Source: a virus
Taxonomy: Duplodnaviria; Caudoviricetes
Length of the DNA stretch: 53,749 nucleotides
Direction: 5' to 3' (one strand)
IMG/VR virus record: IMGVR_UViG_3300032086_001878
Coordinates: 1-53,749 of that record
The notes under the pieces were generated by a model that worked only from the letters and a program-made list of their open reading frames with translations, had not been told where the DNA came from and searched no databases. Below, one piece after another: positions 3,608 to 51,799 of the stretch (position 1 is the first letter of the stretch; each line of letters begins with the position of its first letter). A program made the translations under genes and the position numbers.

Positions 3608-3627
3608 TACCCTTGGGAGCAATAATA

Positions 3628-5397
3628 ATGATAAAAAATGAATACGGGCCGACACTACCAATCTCTGAAGGAATACACGCCACTAAATACCGAAGTGAAG
3701 GTGAAACATTCTACGAGGCTATGACCAGAGTAGCAGACGCATTAAAAGACGATACTGTTCACTTCGAACAGTTTAGAACAATCCTTTATAACCAACGGTT
3801 CCTACCTGCAGGTAGAGTGCAATCAGCTATGGGTGCGCCCCGTACTGTAACGCCCTACAATTGCTTTGTTTCCTCTACGATTGAGGACAGTATGGATGGC
3901 ATCACCAGAGCCGTTGCAAGGGCCGCTAAGACCATGCAATTAGGTGGCGGTATCGGGTACGACTTCAGTACGTTACGGCCTCATGGGGCGCTTATAAAGA
4001 GCCTAGACAGCAAGTCTAGCGGCCCCCTAAGTTTCATGGGAATTTTTGATGCAACTTGCAAGACAATTAGCTCCGCAGGGCATCGAAGAGGCGCTCAAAT
4101 GGCAGTGATGCGAGTGGATCATCCTGACATCGAAAAGTTCATTCGGGCAAAGAACAATAGCACTGACCTAACCCAGTTTAACATGAGTGTTGCGGTCACC
4201 GATAAGTTCATGGAAGCGGTAAAAACAGACAGCGACTTTGACTTAGTTTTTGAGGGAACAGCTTACAAGACCGTCAAAGCAAAAGCTCTGTGGGATGATA
4301 TTCTCAGAAGTACATGGGATTGGGCTGAACCTGGAATCCTATTCATCGATAGAATTAATCAGAAGAATAATCTACACTATTGTGAAACGATTGCGGCTAC
4401 AAACCCTTGTGGTGAGCAACCATTGCCACCCAACGGTGCATGTTTACTAGGTTCATTTAATTTAACTAAGTACGTTGTGATGCATGATGCGGTAGGCAAA
4501 TGGGGCTTAAAGGATAAGTACGTCTTCAATATGAACATGCTCAAGAATGATATTCCTTGGGTAGTTCGGGCAATGGATAACGTAGTCGATAGAGCAACCT
4601 ACCCTCTTCCTGAACAAGAAGAAGAAGCCAAAAACAAAAGGCGCATGGGCTTGGGTGTTACTGGTGTTGCAAACGCTATCGAAGCTCTTGGCTTTGAGTA
4701 TGGCTCAGATGATTTCATCAGGATCTTCGAGGACATCATGGCTACCATCCGTGATGAAGCTTACAAAGCTTCCATAGAACTTGCTAAAGAAAAAGGTAAG
4801 TTTCCGCTATTTAAAAAGGATTACCTTACTAGCGGCTTTGCTATGACCTTACCAACTGAAATCAGGACTGAGATTGCAAAGCATGGCATCCGTAACAGCC
4901 ACCTTTTGTCTATAGCCCCAACGGGAACTATTTCTTTGACTGCAGATAATGTATCATCTGGCATAGAGCCTGTGTTTAATCATGGCTATGACCGCACGAT
5001 ACAAACCTACGATGGGCCTATCGTCGAGCGAGTAGATGATTATGGCTACCGTGAGTTTGGTGTAAAAGGAAAGACCGCTAACGAACTCTCAGTCTTCGAT
5101 CATGTGCGAGTTTTAAATATAGCAAGTAGATATGTTGATTCCGCTTGCTCGAAGACGTGCAATGTTGGTGACCATGTAAAATTTGATGAATTTAAAAAGG
5201 TATACATGGATGCATATGAGGGCGGTAGTAGCGGTTGCACAACTTTTCGTAGAAAAGGGAAGAGAAACGGCATTCTCAATGCTTCGGCATCTGAGGACGT
5301 TGTAGAAGAGCCTCAGAAAGAGGCCAACGCAGACTTCGTAGACGAAGGTGGGGCTTGTTACTTTGACCCATCAACAGGACTGCGAAAATGCGAGTAA
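3628..5397 (+). CDS. nrdJ: Ribonucleotide reductase, class II (B12-dependent)
   Basis: TNPCGEQ active site, NCF, SIAPTGT, C-terminal Cys pair; no beta-subunit gene seen; ATG 3628 follows GGAG. Confidence 0.85.
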   Translation: MIKNEYGPTLPISEGIHATKYRSEGETFYEAMTRVADALKDDTVHFEQFRTILYNQRFLPAGRVQSAMGAPRTVTPYNCFVSSTIEDSMDGITRAVARAAKTMQLGGGIGYDFSTLRPHGALIKSLDSKSSGPLSFMGIFDATCKTISSAGHRRGAQMAVMRVDHPDIEKFIRAKNNSTDLTQFNMSVAVTDKFMEAVKTDSDFDLVFEGTAYKTVKAKALWDDILRSTWDWAEPGILFIDRINQKNNLHYCETIAATNPCGEQPLPPNGACLLGSFNLTKYVVMHDAVGKWGLKDKYVFNMNMLKNDIPWVVRAMDNVVDRATYPLPEQEEEAKNKRRMGLGVTGVANAIEALGFEYGSDDFIRIFEDIMATIRDEAYKASIELAKEKGKFPLFKKDYLTSGFAMTLPTEIRTEIAKHGIRNSHLLSIAPTGTISLTADNVSSGIEPVFNHGYDRTIQTYDGPIVERVDDYGYREFGVKGKTANELSVFDHVRVLNIASRYVDSACSKTCNVGDHVKFDEFKKVYMDAYEGGSSGCTTFRRKGKRNGILNASASEDVVEEPQKEANADFVDEGGACYFDPSTGLRKCE

Positions 5398-5436: not shown

Positions 5437-5631
5437 ATGCAGGAAGACCCCTACCAGACAGGTTATCAAGATTTCTTCGAAGGAAACCTAACCTGTAAAT
5501 ATCGATCCCGAAGCTTCTATGCAAAAGAGTGGCTTCGGGGTTTCAACGCAGCATTCAACTATAACAGGCAAGCAAATGTACAAAGAGTTCCAGAAAAAAG
5601 ACTACCAAGAGTCAGATGGTGCAGCCCGTGA
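5437..5631 (+). CDS. Rmf/CrpP-fold-like small protein
   Basis: GY....G....C.Y......W..GF spacing resembles ribosome modulation factor; GAGG RBS. Confidence 0.5.
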   Translation: MQEDPYQTGYQDFFEGNLTCKYRSRSFYAKEWLRGFNAAFNYNRQANVQRVPEKRLPRVRWCSP

Positions 5632-5998
5632 AGCAGCTAAAAGCTTTTGGCGTTCACTGGGGTATGTTTGTAAGGACAATCCTGACGAGTTCGGGGTTGA
5701 CCTAATAGTTGAAGGACGTAACAGGCGTTTCTACTGTGAAGTAGAGCGTAAGAAGGTTTGGCATGGTGTTTCGTTTAAGTACGACACCATCCACCTTCCT
5801 GTTCGTAAGGCTAAGTTCCTTAACAAACCCACACAGTTCATGGTGTTCAACAACAGTTTGACCCATGCCGCCATCTTTGGACGCAAGATTGTTAAGGAAA
5901 GCCCAACTGCAGAAGTACCTAACTACAAGATTGCTTTCGGTGAAAAGTTCTACGATGTTCCAGTAGCCAAAGCTCACTTTATTAAGACACTTAACTAA
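5576..5998 (+). CDS. Putative PD-(D/E)xK endonuclease
   Basis: FGVDLIV..FYCEVERK; ATG at 5576 preferred over the track start. Confidence 0.55.
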   Translation: MYKEFQKKDYQESDGAAREAAKSFWRSLGYVCKDNPDEFGVDLIVEGRNRRFYCEVERKKVWHGVSFKYDTIHLPVRKAKFLNKPTQFMVFNNSLTHAAIFGRKIVKESPTAEVPNYKIAFGEKFYDVPVAKAHFIKTLN

Positions 5999-6189: not shown

Positions 6190-6264
6190 ATGTGGATTGA
6201 TTTAGTAATAATTGTTGGGGCCGTGATAATACTGTACACGGTCTGGAAGGATACAAACGACTGA
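6190..6264 (+). CDS. 24-aa hydrophobic peptide MWIDLVIIVGAVIILYTVWKDTND
   Basis: Manually translated; single TM-like segment; weak RBS. Confidence 0.45.
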   Translation: MWIDLVIIVGAVIILYTVWKDTND

Positions 6265-6282
6265 CAAAAAGCCCCGTAGCTA

Positions 6283-6312
6283 TTGACCACAGGGCTTTAG
6301 ATCGTATATAAT
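6283..6312 (+). promoter_or_regulatory. sigma70 promoter of sRNA-2
   Basis: TTGACC-N18-TATAAT. Confidence 0.65.
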
Positions 6313-6318
6313 ATACTT

Positions 6319-6386
6319 GAAGTTGGCGGTTTGGTCACTGCCTTTTTCAGTTTAGTAACCCTAGGCTTAATCGCCTAGGGTTTTTA
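6319..6386 (+). ncRNA. Candidate trans-antisense sRNA-2
   Basis: GGCGGT-[TTGGTC]-ACTGCC hairpin, then terminator AACCCTAGG/CCTAGGGTT plus T-tract; complementary to early-gene leaders. Confidence 0.7.
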
Positions 6387-6390
6387 CTTT

Positions 6391-6567
6391 TCAGGTAACG
6401 ATTATATCTTCACCATCATCATAACTTGAGCCATCCTTGAACGGTATTGCAGTAAAAGTGTCGAGAGTGCATACGATCAAATATTGCTGATCTGCTTCTT
6501 TACTTTTTTGCGCTGCCTCAAGCAATGCATTGCCAAATTCATTGGCTTTTTGTGCAGTTAATAGCAT
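6391..6567 (-). CDS. 58-aa hypothetical protein (paralog of 46259-46438)
   Basis: MLLTAQKANEFGNALLEAAQKSKEADQQYLIV...; strong AAAGGAG RBS; not in the ORF track. Confidence 0.8.
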   Translation of the reverse strand: MLLTAQKANEFGNALLEAAQKSKEADQQYLIVCTLDTFTAIPFKDGSSYDDGEDIIVT

Positions 6568-6738
6568 TAACTACTCCTTTATTATATGTTACTACAACAG
6601 GCGTTATTAGAGGGAACTACCCTCTGCCTAATGTAATTCTGACGTAGGAAGTACTCAAAGGTCAACAGATAAATTTGCGTAATTTTTTGAAAACTTTGTT
6701 GACTCGAAAAAAGTCAATAAAATCAATGCTGCCAAAAG

Positions 6739-6747
6739 TTATCCACA
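6739..6747 (+). promoter_or_regulatory. DnaA box
   Basis: Perfect TTATCCACA in an intergenic region. Confidence 0.4.
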
Positions 6748-6791
6748 TCTATATGTTGATATTTACCAGGTCTAAAATCAATATATAGTAT
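6746..6791. promoter_or_regulatory. Tandem NrdR-box-like pair
   Basis: Cores CTATATGTTG (6749) and CAATATATAG (6779), 30 bp apart. Confidence 0.35.
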
Positions 6792-6876
6792 GCGATACTA
6801 TGGGATGTATAGCATAAAAATAAAAAAAAACTCCCGAATCATTTGACCCAAGAGCTTTTATTCTATTATGAATAGT

Positions 6877-6939
6877 TAAAGGGATTAACTACCCCTTTGT
6901 TATATGTTACGCCCCCTAGCTTCGGCTTGGGGGTTTTTT
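6877..6939 (+). ncRNA. Candidate antisense sRNA-3
   Basis: TTGACC at 6843; AAAGGG-[ATTAACTAC]-CCCTTT hairpin; TTCG terminator plus T6; 25/27 match to 6566-6592. Confidence 0.7.
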
Positions 6940-9900
6940 ATTGGTAGCCTATTAAGTTTTGCATTTGCTGATCTAGGTTGTTTTTTGCATTCTCAGCTTG
7001 CGCCAAATAATCTGCTAGAGCCATCATAAAATCTTGCTCTCCACCTTCGCTTTCATCATCATACAACTCAGATCTTACGAGCCAAGCATAGAAGAGTTCC
7101 TGTTGATTTTGCGACATAGCAACGTCACCGTCAGGAACAACCTGCCTCGCTACTTTTACAAACTCTTGTGGCTTTGATAGCAATTGTTCAGCTAACCGTG
7201 CAGACTCTGCCCCGTCCAGTTTCTCGCCTAAGAAACCAACGGCCCCTGATCGCACCCTTGCACCAATACGGCTCAAAGCACCGAAGGTCAAAGTAACCAA
7301 TCTGTTTACTGCGGCAATAGATGCGGCTTTGTCTGCGGTTATGGAATTACCTGCACCAGAGGTAGCTTTCCTTGTTCCCACCTGAACGCCACTTAGCCTT
7401 AATAAGGTTTCCAACCCTGCTACATTTTCAGGATTGTTTTTGAATATTAAATTAGCCTTATCTAAATAATCCGTAAAATTTTCTAGTTCCTGCGTAATCT
7501 TGGCTTCGCTAACGCCACGTTGGTTTGGCATTTCTTTTGATAGAATTAAGAACTTATCTTTAAAAAACTTACTAAATGCCGCCTCAACACCTTTTTGTGC
7601 AAGTTCTCTTTCCACAGGATCACCGATTGCGTCTATCTTTGAAAGTAATTCAGGAAGATCACCTGATAACTGCCCATCGACAACACCCATAGCCTGTTTG
7701 TCATTAAAGTATTTATTAAGAACTTCAGTTGTATTCGGGTTTACTTTTCCTTCAGCATTTTGAAAGAACCTGCCTAGTGCGCCCTCGTATGCTTGTTGCT
7801 TTGCTTCCTCAAGTTTTAAAGTTGCCCCGTCTAGCCTTAGTTGCAATTCAGGGGTTATTTTCTCTAACCTTTGGATTTGTCGTAGGAAGGAGCGAACCTG
7901 ATCTGCAGCCTCTTTGGTGGCAGGGTTTCTATCTAGTAAGCTTGCACGGCTCTCAAGAGCTTGCCTGACTGCAGTAAAATCAACTTCATCTAATGCCCTA
8001 CCTGACTGTGAAGAAATGTTACTTACAGCGTCTGCAATAACGTAATCCACTACGTCCTCAACAGATTGACCACCCTCACTACGCAGAAGTACATTTAGAA
8101 TACCTTCGCCCTGCGCTCTGTTTACATCCAACAAACCTGACTCAACACTTTGTCGGGTTAAATCCCTTGCACCTGCTTGGTTTAATCTTCCTGCGCTACT
8201 GTTAGCAAAGTTATCTACGTTTTGAAGAATACCACCATCACGCCAATACTTAGAATACTGATTTCTGTAGTAATCCATAGCGTCTTGTGCAGCCGCCAGT
8301 TTATTAACCTGCCCTGTTTCATCTAAGTACAGAATAGCGTCATCATCTATTAATCTTTTAAGACCTGCTAAATTACTTATTGCTGTAGTTGCAGGAAGTG
8401 ATCCATCACGCTCAAGTTGGTTTAAGGTATCAGCTAAGTTAGGACGTATTTTTGTGTATAGATCCTCGAAGGTTACTTTATTACTTAAAAACTTTATGGC
8501 TTCATCACGATCCATTTGAGAGACTACAGCTAGTAGTTCACCTAACTGAGCATTTCCAGGTTTCTTAGGATTACCTGCATCTAAAAATTCTTTATTAAGA
8601 GTTTGTAATTGATCATACAGACGTTCACCAAACTGAACTCCATCATCATCCGCTATATTTAAACGCCCACCTTTAATCTTGTTGAAAAGATCATTTTTCT
8701 TTTGGTTCATTTGCCTACTGGCACTTACAAGTTTATCAAGTATTGCATCTGCACTATCAGCTTTGTTGATCGCTATGGAAACGCCATCTACTTCGTTTAA
8801 TTGTTCTAGTTTAGAACCAAAGAACGGATCATTTTGTATCTGACTTGTAATTCGATTTTTGAAATCAGTAATTGCATTTTCTGCTTTGGCTACATCATCT
8901 GCGGCACTCCTTATAGGTGCATTGGCAGCATCCCGTAGTGCATCGCCTGTCTGATCTACAGCGGATTGACCGCCTCTTACATCAAACATTTCGTCAGTAG
9001 TTTGAGCTAGTACCCTAGCAGGTTCTCCCTGCTTTGTAGCAAGTTGCCCAGTGTTTAGCTTATTGCCTAGCGCACCCTGTTCTATCACTTGGGAAGAGGT
9101 AATAATTCTTTTTGCGGTTTCGGTGTCATTGTTTCTGAGGGCATACTGAACTGCAGCTAACGTACTTAGACCTACCTTAACCTTATCATCATCAATCATA
9201 GTAATGATTTCATCATTATCTTCTATGAGCTTAACAAGATCACGCTTTATCTGAACAAGTTCATCTGCGGAAGCGGATGGATCTGCAGCTATTGATAGTC
9301 TGTTCAAAACATCATCAACAAATGCTTTCTCTCTACTAGCGGTACTGAGTACTCCTGTAAGTGTAGCTGCACCAGAAAAGAGGTATAAAACCTTGGCACT
9401 TTTTGCTACGCCTTTTGCACCTGTCTGAAGTGTTCGGGCAGCGAATAAAGCATCAGCTAAAACATTAGCCTTGTTCGCCAATATTTGTTGGTATTCAGGG
9501 GCATCGGGATCTACTGCAATCCCTTGGGTAAGGGGATAGATAGCAGCATTTTCTCCAATGAATGCGGTTGGAATATCAGGACTTAGAGCCGCTGCCATAC
9601 CTGCTTCAGTGGATAAAACCTTAACAGTGTTTGCTGCTTTAGGTGAATACTTTAATAAGTCAGTAGATATTTTTCTGGCATCATTTGTACCACCTAGCTT
9701 TGATGATACACGGGATATACCCTCTACAACTTTATCTCCACCTTTACCGCCTATTACACCACCAGTTAGTAACTGTGTTCCCTCAAAAAGTAGGGCATCA
9801 ACGATACCGCCATCACCTGCAGCTACATCAGGCAACACTTCATCTACAACCCCTACAGCATCCGTTGTTAAATCCACATTTGGTATCGTTCCAATAGACG

Positions 9901-10735
9901 GAATATTTTCTGTAATAACATTGGCGGCATCGATAGCGGCATTAGCTACAGCGTCACCTTTAGCCGCAAGATAATCATTTACTGCGGCAAATGTCTCAAG
10001 AAGATTCTTACCACCCTGATAAATACCTAACGATATAGTGTCATCAAAATCTAAATCGGGGGCGCTAAACGATGCCAGATCTGGTGGAGGAACTAATAGT
10101 CCTTGGTATACTACGCCCAGACCATCTTGCTCACCTGCTTCCGCATATGCCTGATAAAGCGCAGTTGCTGCGGCTCTACCTTCCTCAGTAGCAGGAAACC
10201 CATCATACATACTTCTATTTGGTTTTGGTAAGGTACTGTCACCTGTGAACTGCCCCGTAAGAAGAGCTTGTTCTGTTTGCTCTTCAGTTGCATTTTTGGG
10301 AACTAATACTTCCCGACCATCTTGGCTTGTAAGAACATTAAAGTCTGCAGTAGCAGTTACGGTTTCATCGTTGACCTGAAAGTTTTGGGTAAACTGGCTT
10401 GGGTACTTTTCTTTAAGTCTATTATACTCTGCTTCATTCTGAGGATTATCAAAGAAACCTGGATTCATATAGGCTGCGCTACTGCTTACGGTTTTACCCG
10501 TGTAAGGATCAACACCCATCATATCAATCATAGCCTGTCGGTCTTCAATTTCCTGTGCAACTGCAGGGTCAAGTTTAGATGCAGGTTGCTCGAAGCTCTG
10601 TTCTTGAGCGTCTACAGCTACAGGATCTGCGGCTGCAGCAACATCTGATTTTGCATCAGGCTCATCAAGATACTGGGAAAAGAAATTATCTTCTTCTTTA
10701 GGTTCTTCAAGAAACTGTTCAAAAAAGTTTGCCAT
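6938..10735 (-). CDS. Large virion (probable internal/ejection) protein
   Basis: 1265 aa, helical and Ala-rich, last gene of the structural operon. Confidence 0.6.
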   Translation of the reverse strand: MANFFEQFLEEPKEEDNFFSQYLDEPDAKSDVAAAADPVAVDAQEQSFEQPASKLDPAVAQEIEDRQAMIDMMGVDPYTGKTVSSSAAYMNPGFFDNPQNEAEYNRLKEKYPSQFTQNFQVNDETVTATADFNVLTSQDGREVLVPKNATEEQTEQALLTGQFTGDSTLPKPNRSMYDGFPATEEGRAAATALYQAYAEAGEQDGLGVVYQGLLVPPPDLASFSAPDLDFDDTISLGIYQGGKNLLETFAAVNDYLAAKGDAVANAAIDAANVITENIPSIGTIPNVDLTTDAVGVVDEVLPDVAAGDGGIVDALLFEGTQLLTGGVIGGKGGDKVVEGISRVSSKLGGTNDARKISTDLLKYSPKAANTVKVLSTEAGMAAALSPDIPTAFIGENAAIYPLTQGIAVDPDAPEYQQILANKANVLADALFAARTLQTGAKGVAKSAKVLYLFSGAATLTGVLSTASREKAFVDDVLNRLSIAADPSASADELVQIKRDLVKLIEDNDEIITMIDDDKVKVGLSTLAAVQYALRNNDTETAKRIITSSQVIEQGALGNKLNTGQLATKQGEPARVLAQTTDEMFDVRGGQSAVDQTGDALRDAANAPIRSAADDVAKAENAITDFKNRITSQIQNDPFFGSKLEQLNEVDGVSIAINKADSADAILDKLVSASRQMNQKKNDLFNKIKGGRLNIADDDGVQFGERLYDQLQTLNKEFLDAGNPKKPGNAQLGELLAVVSQMDRDEAIKFLSNKVTFEDLYTKIRPNLADTLNQLERDGSLPATTAISNLAGLKRLIDDDAILYLDETGQVNKLAAAQDAMDYYRNQYSKYWRDGGILQNVDNFANSSAGRLNQAGARDLTRQSVESGLLDVNRAQGEGILNVLLRSEGGQSVEDVVDYVIADAVSNISSQSGRALDEVDFTAVRQALESRASLLDRNPATKEAADQVRSFLRQIQRLEKITPELQLRLDGATLKLEEAKQQAYEGALGRFFQNAEGKVNPNTTEVLNKYFNDKQAMGVVDGQLSGDLPELLSKIDAIGDPVERELAQKGVEAAFSKFFKDKFLILSKEMPNQRGVSEAKITQELENFTDYLDKANLIFKNNPENVAGLETLLRLSGVQVGTRKATSGAGNSITADKAASIAAVNRLVTLTFGALSRIGARVRSGAVGFLGEKLDGAESARLAEQLLSKPQEFVKVARQVVPDGDVAMSQNQQELFYAWLVRSELYDDESEGGEQDFMMALADYLAQAENAKNNLDQQMQNLIGYQ

Positions 10736-32245: not shown

Positions 32246-32460
32246 TATTCTGAACCTTTAATCACTTCTTCTCTGAGGGTATGTAATCTACGCAATTCAG
32301 CGATTGCGCCTTGGATTTCCAAGATACGACTTGGCTCTTTTTGTAGCTCAAGAATATGATGGAAATAACTAATACGGCTATCTGCGTATTGCTTCAGCTT
32401 GTCCATCATGTCTTTGTCGTTAACAAGTGGCAGTAAGCTGCGGTAGGTTTCTTTATTCAT
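32245..32460 (-). CDS. Hypothetical protein
   Basis: 71 aa, coupled to the portal gene. Confidence 0.75.
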   Translation of the reverse strand: MNKETYRSLLPLVNDKDMMDKLKQYADSRISYFHHILELQKEPSRILEIQGAIAELRRLHTLREEVIKGSE

Positions 32461-34598
32461 TAATTAACGGGGCCTTGAGGTTGTTGTGGTTGGTTCCCCC
32501 CGTTGTCTCCTCCACCTGCACCTGTAAAACCTTCGGCTGTTGGCTCTGGTGCATTGCCTGGAGCTATATTACCACCACCTGTGCCTGTTGGGTCTTCAGG
32601 TGACGGTACACCTTGTGCAGGTGCTTGTGGTGGCTGTTGAGGCAACATAGCCTGTATCTCTGCCATCATCTTCGCTTGTATAATAGCTTCCCGTGGATCG
32701 TTAAGAATTTTGTCTTCATCTAGATCCATAGATGCAGCAAGCTCTCGAAGGATGAAGTCATACTTAACAAACGGAGCCATCTGTTGATTAGCTGTCATCT
32801 GCATAAACTGTAGTAAGCGTTGGCTTCTGATCTCGTTCCGCATCAGACTTTCAGTGCCACGGGCTTTTACTTCTAAGTCACCCTGAGTATATTCCTGATC
32901 AAAGTTGAACTGCATGTTGAAAGCAAATAATGCTTTGCCCAACGGTGCTAATAAATAATCATCAACATTTCTCACTACTGCTTTAATGTTTTGCGCTGCG
33001 GCTCCCATCAACATAGACATACCTGAAGCAGTACGTCCTACACCCATAACACCACCTACACCGTGGCTATATGAAGGTATCCCCGTAGACTCATCTGATA
33101 GCTGACGGGCTTTGTCGAACATCATTAGAAGTTCGTTAGATACGTTGGGGAACTTGGTTCCAAAGATAGATTGACCTGGAGCACCTGCCTGTCTGCGGAA
33201 GACTTTGCCTGGGTACACAGATAGGTCTTGGCCTGGGACGAGATTGGTTTCATCTATTTCTATAAGTAGGTTACCAGAGAGCGCACCGTTATCTACAGCC
33301 ATCCTCATAAAACCGTTCATCAACAACTGGGTGTCTTCCATGTTTTCAGCAACACCAATACCAAAGAAACCGTAGGGGTTTAACTCATAGGGAACTGAAG
33401 TGTAGGGAATGCGTGTTGGGGTAAATGGATTGATTACGAGGCGTAGTATTTGCCCATTACAAATCCAAACATTGACTTGAACTTGGTCACGGTCTGAAAC
33501 TTCATCAGGTAATTCTAGATCAGCTTGCTCTGCAAGGTCAGCATCCATAACCCCCCAATACTCTAGTACTTCATATCGATCAGGACTTTCTGAATTGTTG
33601 GTTTCGTCTAATGCATCTTCCCAGTATTCTCTTTGGTATTGAGGGCCATACTCAATTGCAAGCTCAATACTTTCTTCACGAAAATGTGGACGTTTCTTTA
33701 AGGCTCTCATCTGAGAACGATTAAGTCTGTGCCTCTGAATAGTATATTCGGCTTCCGACATATTTCGAGCATCTGGATCAGGATATAAATCCCATATACT
33801 TACATACTCAACCTTTGGAATTGTTTCAAAGATAGGACTGTAGTTTCCTTCTTCATCCCAATTTGGATATTCCTTGTCGAAAGCAAACGGCCCTTTAAGA
33901 ACACCTGTACCAAAGAGGCAAGTCTCGAATGCTACGGATCGAAGGTGTTTGGATGCGTTTGTTTCATCCAACTGATCATGCATCTTACGTTCCATACGGT
34001 CTGCGGCACGTTTTGCAGGTTCATATGTAATTGAACTAGGGGTTTTACCCTGCCCTAACTCCAATTCCTCGTAAATAGGCCCTAAATCATCCTTATATGG
34101 GCCTAAATCACGGTCTAAATCGGGTCTTGCTATAGCCCTTTTAGGTTTATACGAAACCCCTATTTTTTCGCTGATTTTCTCCTCTGTAATAGCGTTTGGA
34201 TCATAATTTACCGCACCTGCTACATTATTAGGATCTCTACGTGCATCTATACCAATAGGAAACTTCGATCCTGCAAATAATACGTCTACAACCTGTGCGT
34301 ATGCTGCCAAAACCTTAGTTTTAGTGATTTTTACGAATGCTTGGCTCTTTTCACTGTCCGTAAACTGCACTTCGGGGCCGTATATACCCCTGTAGTTACG
34401 GTAAGACATCAGCCAACGCTCTTCGTCGGCTAATCTTTGGTCTTTTGAGCGTCTAAATTGACTTTCTATGAAGGATGCTAACTCAGAAAACTCAATATTT
34501 TCCTCTTCTACATCCCCGTCCTCTTGTAAAGAGACAATATCCGATAATTCAGTCTGATCTTCAGGTGATGGGCCTGTAGGTTTGTCCATTAATGCCAT
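32460..34598 (-). CDS. Portal protein
   Basis: 712 aa after TerL; WDLYPDP, FFGIGVAE, RTASGMSML. Confidence 0.85.
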   Translation of the reverse strand: MALMDKPTGPSPEDQTELSDIVSLQEDGDVEEENIEFSELASFIESQFRRSKDQRLADEERWLMSYRNYRGIYGPEVQFTDSEKSQAFVKITKTKVLAAYAQVVDVLFAGSKFPIGIDARRDPNNVAGAVNYDPNAITEEKISEKIGVSYKPKRAIARPDLDRDLGPYKDDLGPIYEELELGQGKTPSSITYEPAKRAADRMERKMHDQLDETNASKHLRSVAFETCLFGTGVLKGPFAFDKEYPNWDEEGNYSPIFETIPKVEYVSIWDLYPDPDARNMSEAEYTIQRHRLNRSQMRALKKRPHFREESIELAIEYGPQYQREYWEDALDETNNSESPDRYEVLEYWGVMDADLAEQADLELPDEVSDRDQVQVNVWICNGQILRLVINPFTPTRIPYTSVPYELNPYGFFGIGVAENMEDTQLLMNGFMRMAVDNGALSGNLLIEIDETNLVPGQDLSVYPGKVFRRQAGAPGQSIFGTKFPNVSNELLMMFDKARQLSDESTGIPSYSHGVGGVMGVGRTASGMSMLMGAAAQNIKAVVRNVDDYLLAPLGKALFAFNMQFNFDQEYTQGDLEVKARGTESLMRNEIRSQRLLQFMQMTANQQMAPFVKYDFILRELAASMDLDEDKILNDPREAIIQAKMMAEIQAMLPQQPPQAPAQGVPSPEDPTGTGGGNIAPGNAPEPTAEGFTGAGGGDNGGNQPQQPQGPVN

Positions 34599-46711: not shown

Positions 46712-47791
46712 ATGACGAATAGAGTTAAGTACTTCAGAGAAATAGTTTTAAGCACGGGGGAACGAAAATACTGTTTTGAACCCCCAAAGTATGTGCAGGA
46801 TGCTCTTGGATGCAGAAGGGAACCCTATGACAGTAAGCTCTTGGCTATACAAAGATGTCAGGAGATCGATGATGCTTACAGGCAGTTCAAACGAGGTGAT
46901 ATAGCTGTTCAAAGAGTAAACTCTGCCACTGTATTGGGTATAATTAACTACTATAAGAGTACCCACGAATATGTTAAACTAGCAGACAATAGTAAAAAGA
47001 CCTATGAACAGTTACTTTCAGGTCTGATTAACATCCAATTACGATCTAAAAGTGGCCCGTTTGTAGAAATGTTGGCTGCAAACGTGACTGAGGATCATGC
47101 AGATAAGCTACATGCATTCCTTCGAGACAACATTTCAGACCACAGGGCGAGACACACGGTTAAGTTCCTGAAGCGTGTCTGGAATGTCTGTGAAATGAAG
47201 AAAAAGATTAGAGGTAATCCTTGGAGACATCTGGAACTGGAGTCAGATCCTGTAAGTGATGTCGTATGGAAGGAAAGCCAAGTCGATAGGTTCATCAATA
47301 CCGCAGATGATATGGGGTATCCTTCGATGGGAACACTGGCAATGCTTTGCTACGACCTATGCCAACGACCTGGAGATATGCGGCAACTTACATGGGAACA
47401 GTTTGATGGAGAGAGCTTCGATTTCTATCAGGAAAAGACAGGGGTGAAGATTGAGATCGATGCAAGCCCCCGTTTAGTTAAGCGACTAGTACCGCTGCAC
47501 AATAGATACGGACAAGATGAAACCATTGTTCAATATGAGAAAACGAACAAGGGCTACGACAATCGAAAGTATAACGAGATCGCTGCTAAAATACGGAAGC
47601 AGTGTATGCTCCCTGATAAACTTAAAATGAAATTTTTACGTCACTCAGGGGCTACCGTTCTTGGCGAAAACGGGGCTACGGAAGATCAGATCTCCGCAGT
47701 TACAGGCCACAAATCCAGACAGATGCTCAACATCTACGTCAAAAAGACCAAGCGTTTGGCATCTTCTGCACAACAACTGAGGTTCAAATGA
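46712..47791 (+). CDS. int: Tyrosine recombinase / integrase
   Basis: CQRPGD (R), QEKTG (K), FLRHS, TGH, IY catalytic residues. Confidence 0.92.
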   Translation: MTNRVKYFREIVLSTGERKYCFEPPKYVQDALGCRREPYDSKLLAIQRCQEIDDAYRQFKRGDIAVQRVNSATVLGIINYYKSTHEYVKLADNSKKTYEQLLSGLINIQLRSKSGPFVEMLAANVTEDHADKLHAFLRDNISDHRARHTVKFLKRVWNVCEMKKKIRGNPWRHLELESDPVSDVVWKESQVDRFINTADDMGYPSMGTLAMLCYDLCQRPGDMRQLTWEQFDGESFDFYQEKTGVKIEIDASPRLVKRLVPLHNRYGQDETIVQYEKTNKGYDNRKYNEIAAKIRKQCMLPDKLKMKFLRHSGATVLGENGATEDQISAVTGHKSRQMLNIYVKKTKRLASSAQQLRFK

Positions 47792-50581: not shown

Positions 50582-51799
50582 ATGGAACAACAGCTAATAA
50601 AAACGCTGCTTAGTAATAGCACCTTCTTAGCGAATCAGGCGAACTTACGCAGGACACTATTCAGTGGTGAGTACGCATCGATCTACGATAAGCTGAAGGA
50701 AGCGCATGAAAAGTATGCAAGAGATCTAACCTTAGATGAAATCTACAGTCTCTGGCTCACAGATAATCCTGTAGCTACCCCTGCGGAAATCCATGAGGTT
50801 AGGGATGTAATAGACCAACTCAAGCGAGTTGAAGCTCTAGGTGAAGACGTTACCACAGATGTTATTACGAAGCTCTGGAGAGCCGATATAGGCCGTGAGA
50901 TAGCGAACCTTGGCATTAATATGGCTGAAGGTGATACAGGCGCTCTGTCGAGACTACAGAGCCTTATAGAGCGTGTTGGTGATGGGTTTATAGAAGATGA
51001 TTTTGGCGAACCTACCACAGATAATATTTATGAGCTTCTAGCTGAAACAAGCAACGAAAATAAATGTAAGTTTAACATCGAAACTTTGAGCCGACACCTC
51101 TACGGCATTGGTGGCGGTGACTTCATGTTAGTCGCAGCTAGACCCGAAACAGGTAAGTCTGCATTTGTCATTAGTTTAGCTGCAGCGCCTGGAGGTTTCT
51201 GTCAGCAAGGATACAAAGTTGTCTATATCGGAAACGAAGAAAAAACCACACGGACAAAGCTGAGAGCTATCCAAGCTTGTTCTGGCATGACCCGTGAGCA
51301 AATCGCTGAAGATCCTGATCTAGCCATGTCGATGTATACGGGAGTTAGAGATAACTTAATCATGCACGATGCCCAAGAGTGGGATCTAGATAAGATCAAC
51401 GCCTACTGCGAAAGAGTGCAGCCGAATGTCCTGATATTGGATCAGGCAGACAAGATACAGATCTCTGGTAACTATAATGCAAGCCATGAACGGATTAGGG
51501 AACTCTATCGTTCTATCAGGGAACTCGCAAAGCGACATGACTGTGCAGTGATAGCCGTGAGCCAAGCTTCGGCTGAAGCAGAGGGCAAGCTGCGGATTGA
51601 TTTCTCTATGCTCGAAGGAAGTAAGACGGGCAAAGCCGCTGAGATCGATGTCTGTTTGGGTATCGGTAAACCGTCAGGTGGCAATGACGATGAACCCAAT
51701 ACCACCAGACAATTATACATCAGCAAAAATAAACTCAGTGGATTTCACGGGAGTATCATTTGTTCAATTCAGCCAGAGGTAAGCAGATATGTTGAATGA
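50582..51799 (+). CDS. Replicative DNA helicase (SF4, DnaB-like)
   Basis: AARPETGKS, NEE, ILDQADK, AVSQA, ISKNK. Confidence 0.9.
   Translation: MEQQLIKTLLSNSTFLANQANLRRTLFSGEYASIYDKLKEAHEKYARDLTLDEIYSLWLTDNPVATPAEIHEVRDVIDQLKRVEALGEDVTTDVITKLWRADIGREIANLGINMAEGDTGALSRLQSLIERVGDGFIEDDFGEPTTDNIYELLAETSNENKCKFNIETLSRHLYGIGGGDFMLVAARPETGKSAFVISLAAAPGGFCQQGYKVVYIGNEEKTTRTKLRAIQACSGMTREQIAEDPDLAMSMYTGVRDNLIMHDAQEWDLDKINAYCERVQPNVLILDQADKIQISGNYNASHERIRELYRSIRELAKRHDCAVIAVSQASAEAEGKLRIDFSMLEGSKTGKAAEIDVCLGIGKPSGGNDDEPNTTRQLYISKNKLSGFHGSIICSIQPEVSRYVE

Follow-up and report, generated by a model that had tools for sequence, protein, structure and literature searches.

A probable antisense RNA, sRNA-3, and its co-varying target ORF58 in a complete virus record

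The sRNA-3/ORF58 locus

The IMG/VR virus record IMGVR_UViG_3300032086_001878, a complete record of 53,749 bases analysed over its full length (the window), carries a candidate small RNA (sRNA) gene, sRNA-3, on its plus strand and a small open reading frame (ORF), ORF58, on its minus strand. A sequence-only reading of this DNA had proposed that sRNA-3 is an antisense RNA dedicated to the ribosome-binding site (RBS) of ORF58. We consider it quite likely that the two form a functional antisense RNA-target pair. The features concerned are:

6877-6899, plus strand: 5' hairpin of sRNA-3, with a 7-bp stem (6877-6883/6893-6899) and the 9-nt loop AUUAACUAC (6884-6892)
6893-6910, plus strand: segment antisense to the Shine-Dalgarno (SD) element and the upstream leader, made of the 3' arm of the hairpin and a single-stranded linker
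6911-6939, plus strand: sRNA-3 intrinsic terminator, made of a G+C-rich UUCG-loop hairpin and then a U tract
6843-6848, plus strand: -35 element TTGACC of the proposed sRNA-3 promoter, within the loop of a minus-strand terminator hairpin
6864-6871, plus strand: candidate -10 elements, both weak, TATTAT at 6864-6869 (15-nt spacer) or TATGAA at 6866-6871 (18-nt spacer)
6391-6567, minus strand: ORF58, 58 aa with an ATG start, the proposed regulated gene
6566-6592, minus strand: target in the ORF58 mRNA, with part of the AUG (6565-6567), the spacer UAGUUA (6568-6573), the SD AAGGAG (6574-6579) and 13 nt upstream
6600-6629, minus strand: 5'-terminal hairpin of the leader, with an inner stem (6609-6614/6620-6625) and the apical loop GUAGUU (complement of 6615-6620), complementary to the sRNA-3 loop
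6636-6665, minus strand: candidate ORF58 promoter from the promoter scan, TTGACC (6665-6660), an 18-nt spacer and CAGAAT (6641-6636)

The sequence at 6884-6910 (ATTAACTACCCCTTTGTTATATGTTAC) matches that at 6566-6592 (ATTAACTACTCCTTTATTATATGTTAC) at 25 of 27 positions, as the sequence-only reading had claimed, and can be read directly to cover part of the AUG, the SD and the upstream leader of ORF58. With up to three mismatches allowed, these are the only two places of the 27-mer in the whole window, and two matches arose in 0 of 100 dinucleotide shuffles. The repeat extends to 37 nt (6556-6592 versus 6874-6910, 86% identity), reaching four codons into ORF58. The two differences were also described correctly: G6899 versus A6581 gives a G.U pair in the duplex of sRNA-3 with the ORF58 leader, and C6893, which is T6575 in the ORF58 copy, pairs with G6883 and closes the sRNA-3 hairpin. 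The gene and its target are divergent and do not overlap, with 284 nt between sRNA-3 and 6566-6592 and 310 bp between sRNA-3 and ORF58.

We predicted the fold of the plus strand over 6877-6939, which consists of the 5' hairpin, a 15-nt single-stranded linker and the terminator, with a minimum free energy of -23.1 kcal/mol (z -3.0) that was equalled by 0 of 200 shuffles. A terminator scan returned a terminator-like plus-strand site at 6913-6933 with the tail TTTTTTATTG, in agreement with the UUCG terminator and T-tract noticed earlier. No Rfam family reaches its gathering score anywhere in the window. Over 6200-7000 with E up to 10, Rfam gave 18 sub-threshold matches at chance level, and the sole antitoxin among them was SR6 on the minus strand (17.1 bits versus a gathering score of 55, E 4.7).

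Co-variation of the SD contact

We collected ORF58-bearing relatives by protein-based and pattern-based scans and obtained 19 further distinct contigs: 8 from IMG/VR, 3 that were new among 6 metagenome loci (the other three agree in length and range with IMG/VR contigs of the set), and 8 more from IMG/VR at 51% identity. The contigs fall into five groups, namely A (the window), B (L003, L004, L011 and L016), C (L005 and L006), D (L007-L010 and L014) and E (L037-L044), and their sRNAs and leaders give 13 distinct haplotypes. The sRNA:mRNA cells of these haplotypes were compared in one ungapped register.

In groups A-D the duplex covers 27 bp, starting at the first base of the loop and finishing at the last base of the linker, and a conserved C.A mismatch lies opposite the A of GGAG; in group E it spans 22-23 bp over AAAGGG and the upstream leader. 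Offsets +1, +5, +6, +9, +10, +11 and +12 hold different Watson-Crick pairs among the groups, i.e. both sides have changed, and all five one-sided changes lead to G.U or U.G. There are zero mismatches at offsets -4 to +12 in the 13 haplotypes. Sliding the register by 1-3 nt lowers the Watson-Crick cells from 252 to 75-93 of 273. The sequence-only reading had named co-variation of the two 27-mers in related phages as its check, and a duplication that is absent or decays randomly there as the sign against it. What we observe is seven positions changed on both sides, and a co-varying pair, with sRNA-3 at the same place, in 20 of 20 ORF58-bearing contigs (the window and the 19 others).

Between the window and group E, 12 of 25 target positions and 16 of 34 positions of the sRNA hairpin and linker are identical (~47-48% each), compared with 33-45% for the unconstrained spacer and 54-56% for the ORF58 DNA. 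Despite this divergence the 22-27-bp match is retained within each genome; the target and sRNA sites have drifted freely yet together. The cognate duplex energies are -31 to -38 kcal/mol, and non-cognate combinations are predicted to be weaker by 5-17 kcal/mol. Two natural types of the linker around offsets +5/+6 are UAUAUG (the window and L003) and UAAGUG (L005, L007 and L037). A duplex scan over the whole genome (10,740 windows, mean -9.95 kcal/mol, standard deviation 3.36) ranks the antisense strand of sRNA-3 itself at -55.2, the ORF58 initiation region at -35.9 and the leader hairpin at -25.9, with the background from -25.8 upward. The word "dedicated" is thus a fair description within the phage, as the top two sites after the RNA's own antisense strand both belong to ORF58.

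The predicted RNA structure is kept as well. Six stem pairs of the 5' hairpin are present in 19 of 19 aligned rows, and the loop varies in concert with the targets. The consensus fold over the 19 rows has 14 pairs, including two terminator pairs changed on both sides and several U.G pairs. Two coding interpretations of the same DNA were rejected: the second copy of the repeat has no start codon after its SD-like element on the minus strand, and a plus-strand ORF at 6904-7029 loses its ATG in groups C-E.

Contact between the two loops

A second co-varying contact, beyond what the earlier reading had observed, lies between the two apical loops. The sequences differ among the groups, yet in each of them the leader's apical loop is a complement of the sRNA-3 loop. 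Groups A and B2 pair AACUAC with GUAGUU (6 bp), group C pairs UAACUA with UAGUUA (6 bp), and group D pairs UAGUUA with UAACUA (6 bp), the loops being flipped through two sRNA transitions and a rewritten leader loop. Group E pairs GUUACUAA with UUAGUAAC, 8 bp between two 9-nt loops. The complementary run is located in the predicted apical loop every time, and when 8 sRNA loops are set against 8 leaders, the cognate classes score best. Leader shuffles attain the observed run in 210-267 of 5000 cases for groups A, B2, C and D, and in 2-8 of 5000 for group E.

Promoter and strand of sRNA-3

The -35 element TTGACC of sRNA-3 is invariant in 18 of 19 aligned rows, the exception being L038 (GATTGACC). 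The promoter unit aligns with that of a second candidate sRNA in the window:

6283-6388, plus strand: sRNA-2, with a near-consensus promoter (TTGACC, 18 nt, TATAAT; 11/12) and an RNA of ~70 nt

In this alignment the sRNA-3 hexamer homologous to TATAAT is TATGAA, and transcription of sRNA-3 would start at ~6877-6880. Just 30-43% of the promoters in three alphaproteobacteria carry -7T, according to PMC7703639, and hence an sRNA-3 -10 without -7T would be ordinary for the host clade, which is presumably alphaproteobacterial judging from the phage relatives. Among the traits expected of a terminator-ended base-pairing sRNA of bacteria (a promoter of its own, an accessible pairing region, and an intrinsic terminator with a U tail), the terminator and the single-stranded linker are clear, the -35 is conserved, and the -10 is weak and unlisted by a consensus scan.

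The choice of strand agrees with the structure. For the same stem pairs, 164 of 168 cells are paired on the plus strand versus 148 of 168 on the minus strand, and a U tract follows the sRNA-3 hairpin on the plus strand only.

ORF58 and its leader

ORF58 is a genuine gene. It keeps a length of 57-58 aa among the relatives, and its codons differ from those of the window at 12 synonymous and 5 non-synonymous sites in L005 and at 22 synonymous and 29 non-synonymous sites in L037. The AlphaFold model has one helix and four strands with a mean predicted local distance difference test (pLDDT) of 82.6, and a metatranscriptome contig lies over the gene at 6410-6577. The protein is acidic (isoelectric point 4.07) with a grand average of hydropathy (GRAVY) of -0.14, and its best 19-residue hydropathy window reaches 0.74, which argues against a membrane helix.

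The ORF58 family is tiny, with 6 representatives at E <= 0.001 among 1.84 billion, one of them a long protein with a partial match. No family matched in Pfam or PHROGs, and none of the 57 Foldseek matches of the model in PDB reached E <= 0.001. An Atlas search returned unnamed viral clusters only (0.85-0.86, under the lead threshold), and tblastn against deposited phages gave no match at E up to 1.

The TTGACC of the candidate ORF58 promoter is conserved in groups A-D, and the transcript would start near 6628-6630. In groups A-D the predicted fold of the initiation region (6548-6573, minus strand) is a self-paired hairpin, GUAGUUAAU-GCU-AUUAACUGC, whose 9-bp stem buries the AUG and the spacer. 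An RNA constraint of this fold may partly account for the invariant MLLT at the N-terminus of ORF58. The minimum-energy fold predicted for group D is a long-range one, in which the leader loop AUUAACUAC pairs with GUAGUUAAU of the same mRNA. We treat these alternative folds of the leader and initiation region, which are model predictions, as leads and not as findings.

Proposed mechanism

In our view sRNA-3 is most likely a locally encoded trans-acting antisense RNA that would block the translation of ORF58. The locus thus probably holds a genuine antisense switch of the classical type, in a marine roseophage from a group that is little explored. An RNA of ~60 nt would be made from its own host-type promoter and ended by its own intrinsic terminator. 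Its 9-nt apical loop would kiss the apical loop of the leader's 5' hairpin through 5-8 bp, and the 3' arm of its hairpin and the linker would pair with the SD and 13-17 nt upstream. In the window lineage this pairing could also take in the AUG and the spacer, for a total of 27 bp with a single C.A and a single G.U. With the SD covered, translation initiation of ORF58 should be blocked, and the 22-27-bp duplex would be a likely RNase III substrate. The sequences establish the complementarity with its statistical weight and its uniqueness in the genome, a conserved RNA structure, the co-variation of both contacts and a terminator specific to the plus strand. The transcription, start and repressive effect of sRNA-3, any role of RNase III or Hfq, and the biological role of ORF58 are inferred.

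Several observations weigh against this proposal. The loop-loop run of group B (L003, L004 and L011) is just 5 bp and is attained by 1015 of 5000 shuffles, and the sRNA-3 loop of group E has no complementarity to the spacer or the AUG. The five groups come from just two deep lineages, A-D and E. Since the two sites form a direct DNA repeat, co-variation alone does not separate antisense pairing from the action of one shared factor or from gene conversion. Concerning the promoter, the likeness to sRNA-2 and the weakness of the -10, both pointed out in the sequence-only reading, were borne out; the consensus scan does not have the sRNA-3 promoter among its 8 sites, and the -10 is weaker still in group E. 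A polarity test using wobble pairs is neutral by cells, with 9 G.U and 12 mismatches for the proposed polarity and 12 and 9 for the opposite one, because the conserved C.A (groups A-D) and A.C (most of group E) beside the SD become wobbles on opposite strands. By events the test favours the proposed polarity 5 to 2, which is not significant, and we have dropped it as a proof of polarity.

The contigs of four RNA or RNA-labelled runs lie over 6229-6391 and 6410-6577 only and leave 6877-6939 uncovered; four of 13 runs were compared, and libraries of this kind seldom retain small RNAs, which makes the result uninformative on sRNA-3 either way. Runs X1 and X2, from one sample, gave the 169-nt contig over 6410-6577, X3 (probably DNA) one over 6257-6391, and X4 one over 6229-6327.

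Predicted late-gene transcription across sRNA-3

The sRNA-3 gene faces the end of a late gene and the terminator that follows it:

6938-10735, minus strand: late gene of 1265 aa, the last of the structural genes facing the junction
6812-6859, minus strand: intrinsic terminator, a hairpin (6859-6826) and a U tract, ending the late-gene transcript

In 10 loci this terminator folds with -17.3 to -23.5 kcal/mol on the minus strand versus -2.6 to -13.5 on the plus strand, and comparison of the window with group E reveals compensatory changes of C-G to A-U pairs. As the sRNA-3 terminator is not a minus-strand terminator, the late-gene transcript should run antisense through all of the sRNA-3 gene. 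This nested design recurs at the sRNA-2 unit, with -23.1 on the minus versus -14.0 on the plus strand. At 6938-6947 and in the relatives, the 1265-aa gene has a stop codon that overlaps the sRNA-3 terminator in its U tract. The C-terminus of the encoded protein (GYQ-stop or GLVQ-stop) and most of its 3' coding DNA differ strongly among the loci, and the adjacent non-coding cassette is conserved.

The nesting of sRNA-3 in the late 3' untranslated region (UTR) suggests a sponge or timer circuit. A more far-reaching possibility, which we consider rather improbable, is a timer of three RNAs in which sRNA-3 would silence ORF58 early or in the lysogen, and the late 3' UTR would relieve the silencing, ORF58 being translated only late. 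Late transcription through 6939-6826 would cause convergent interference with the sRNA-3 promoter, and the late 3' UTR, as a perfect 63-nt complement of sRNA-3 and a mimic of the ORF58 leader, would soak up the sRNA.

Alternative explanations

The same transcript offers an explanation in which the minus strand is the functional molecule. The 3' UTR of the 1265-aa gene (6939-6860), with its hairpin and an SD-like AAAGGGG copy, would mimic the ORF58 leader and titrate a factor that binds both copies, which could be a protein, perhaps ORF58 itself, or the ribosome. Such an RNA is probably made, because the late-gene transcript should reach the terminator at 6859-6826; shared recognition would likewise give a concerted change of both copies, and the wobble test by cells favours neither strand. 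This explanation accounts neither for the conserved plus-strand terminator, with its U.G pairs and following U tract, nor for the invariant -35 or the promoter paralogy with sRNA-2. The SD-like element has no start codon after it, and the loops share cores in different registers with sizes of 5-9 nt, which is awkward for a single protein site. We regard it as unlikely. An inert duplication is more improbable still: the second copy would be the decaying remnant of a duplicated gene start, or would be homogenised by gene conversion, and would have no regulatory role. A 5'-end duplication would indeed reach into the coding region, as the repeat does to codons 2-4 in groups A-C, and the sRNA-3 unit resembles a duplicate of the sRNA-2 unit. 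Against this, the match persists where protein identity is 51% and the non-coding DNA around it has dropped to 33-45%, and two separate segments, the loop and the linker, co-vary. The fixed differences C6893 in the sRNA hairpin and T6575 in the SD have not been erased, and their persistence argues against simple homogenisation.

The pairing itself would be shared by a type I toxin-antitoxin (TA) system, in which ORF58 is a toxin held off by an unstable antisense RNA and serves to stabilise the prophage or to abort the infection by other phages. The divergent, adjacent and non-overlapping layout fits, as do the complementarity of ~20-27 nt at the 5' UTR and RBS, the optional nature of the cassette described below, and the integrase of the phage. 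The initiation region appears to be sequestered in its own 9-bp hairpin, a trait of many type I toxin mRNAs. The protein does not fit: it is acidic and not hydrophobic, with no predicted membrane helix, and type I toxins are defined as small hydrophobic proteins (PMC2887945). Pfam, PHROGs, the fold search and Rfam antitoxins gave no match, the PADLOC library being outside these searches. We think there is little chance that ORF58 and sRNA-3 are such a toxin and antitoxin.

An optional cassette between two terminators

The presence or absence of ORF58 and sRNA-3 follows one unit:

6383-6933: optional cassette of ~550 bp with ORF58, the control region and sRNA-3, absent from L032 and CRP-235

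In L032 the sRNA-2 terminator is joined straight to the sequence that elsewhere follows the sRNA-3 terminator, which indicates that ORF58, the control region and sRNA-3 form an optional cassette. L032 and the cultured phage CRP-235 (L034, 2500-2630) have sRNA-2 alone at this junction. The cassette sits between two similar terminators.

Searches beyond the ORF58-bearing contigs added no copy. A covariance model, R1, run over 10 sources found no extra sRNA-3 and only weak sRNA-2 matches (14-27 bits). A promoter-pattern search gave 13 loci, every one already known, and its one match in species genomes, in an Acidobacteriota metagenome-assembled genome without the RNA, was set aside as chance. A hairpin pattern gave 10 loci, two of which, L035 (4336-4355) and L036 (8639-8658), have a similar-looking hairpin, GAAAGGGATTAGCTACCCCTTTGAC, ahead of a small ORF and score 28 bits with R1; they lie in unrelated, G+C-richer viral DNA and were rejected as probably chance.

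Neighbouring features

sRNA-2 and sRNA-3 are probably paralogues, judging from their aligned promoter units. sRNA-2 consists of a GGCGG/CUGCC hairpin and a terminator (z -4.5) and is almost invariant in all loci, also in the cassette-free L032 and CRP-235, with a compensatory terminator change in L005 and L006. It lies antisense within the 3' UTR of ORF58, or within that of the late gene in the cassette-free phages. A complementarity of the sRNA-2 promoter to 6569-6587 was dropped, as it lies mostly upstream of the likely sRNA-2 start.

Just upstream of sRNA-2, at 6190-6264 on the plus strand, there is a 24-codon ORF for a hydrophobic peptide, MWIDLVIIVGAVIILYTVWKDTND. DNA alignments suggest that this stretch recurs in L003, L006, L014, L016 and L032; L005 and L007-L010 have the end of another gene in its place. 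The non-coding stretch at 6719-6801 is nearly invariant in groups A-D and unalignable in group E. Within it are a perfect DnaA-box consensus, TTATCCACA, at 6739-6747, which occurs nowhere else in the window (0.46 expected by chance), an inverted repeat matching at 11/12 (CTATATGTTGAT/ATCAATATATAG) and a palindrome, ATAGTATGCGATACTAT. The stretch may serve as an origin or an operator, or may encode a further RNA.

Phage and genomic setting

The locus is at a junction where the plus-strand genes of DNA metabolism end and the minus-strand structural genes begin. On the side of DNA metabolism we found:

3613-5397, plus strand: ribonucleotide reductase
5519-5998, plus strand: an ORF

A DnaB-like helicase (50582-51799) and an SU10-type portal (32460-34598) are encoded elsewhere in the window. 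The nearest relatives of its 727-aa tail-fibre-like protein are the Roseobacter phages CRP-738 (61%), CRP-235, CRP-212 and CRP-1/2/3, and by this protein likeness the window phage is a relative of the CRP/HMO-2011-type Roseobacter phages. The CRP phages named here are HMO-2011-type roseophages according to PMC9038755. Close DNA relatives of the window were not found by megablast against deposited phages, and a sensitive DNA search of the same phages gave one 90-nt match only, to CRP-235 at the sRNA-2 promoter. A tyrosine integrase is encoded at 46712-47791 on the plus strand (PF00589, 50.4 bits), which suggests that the phage is probably temperate; an integrase or temperate trait is described for some HMO-2011-type subgroups in the same paper.

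Significance

The co-variation record of sRNA-3 and ORF58 is unusually clean, and the mode it points to is classical antisense control of translation initiation. The locus is a compact, self-contained sRNA-target pair and amounts to a natural compensatory-mutation experiment with three specificity classes, which might serve as an orthogonal riboregulator set. It also offers a ready test case for RNA control in the phages of slow-growing marine bacteria, and it illustrates that small intergenic cassettes of uncultured phages can be read functionally via co-variation alone. If the timer were true, the nested design, which sRNA-2 keeps in the cassette-free CRP-235, would be a general feature of the HMO-2011-type genome plan.

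A literature search that took in PMC9038755 and, of the 2025 review PMC12197685, sections 4 and 15 and Table 1 found no RNA regulator described for HMO-2011-type phages. The text of PMC9038755 does not mention small or non-coding RNAs, promoters or terminators, and no roseophage is listed in that Table 1.

Comparison with known systems

The sequence-only reading had compared the arrangement with type I TA systems and with sar/ant of phage P22. The first comparison holds for the layout only. In the divergent type I pairs tisB/istR-1, shoB/ohsC and zorO/orzO, as at our locus, the antisense RNA gene is adjacent to and divergent from its target without overlap, and ~20 nt of complementarity lie in the 5' UTR or RBS of a single dedicated target. 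The complementarity of sRNA-3 to the 5' UTR and RBS (25/27 over the SD and AUG, with co-variation) agrees with this. ORF58 is acidic and looks soluble, unlike a hydrophobic membrane toxin. Our locus also belongs to a phage, its RNA has two co-varying contacts, and there is no sequence relationship, nor one to a curated antitoxin RNA family of Rfam.

The comparison with P22 did not stand. The sar gene is opposite to its target, overlaps it and gives a perfect complement, whereas sRNA-3 overlaps no target, lies 310 bp away, and has a 25/27 match that is kept by co-evolution. What the two share is a small phage antisense RNA directed to a translation initiation region, for sRNA-3 as complementarity only. 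The P22 sar RNA acts as an antisense RNA on the translation initiation region of ant and lowers its translation, according to PMC12197685.

A kissing apical loop with a second pairing over the RBS, as proposed here, is known from CopA/CopT, hok/sok and OxyS-fhlA. Compared with these, both predicted contacts of sRNA-3 fall on one short leader and are not collinear.

The c4 RNA of P1 and P7 is, like sRNA-3, a trans-acting phage RNA (~60-77 nt) on a phage mRNA in a temperate phage, and it too uses short complementary segments that include the ribosome-binding region. c4 is processed from the transcript of its own target, whereas sRNA-3 is divergent with its own proposed promoter, and the covariance-model search of 6200-7000 with E up to 10 did not return the C4 family. 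The c4 antisense RNA of P1/P7 is entered, with the ant operon, in Table 1 of the review PMC12197685. Overall, sRNA-3 is closest to the divergent type I pairs in its layout, and closest to P1 c4 as a trans-acting phage RNA.

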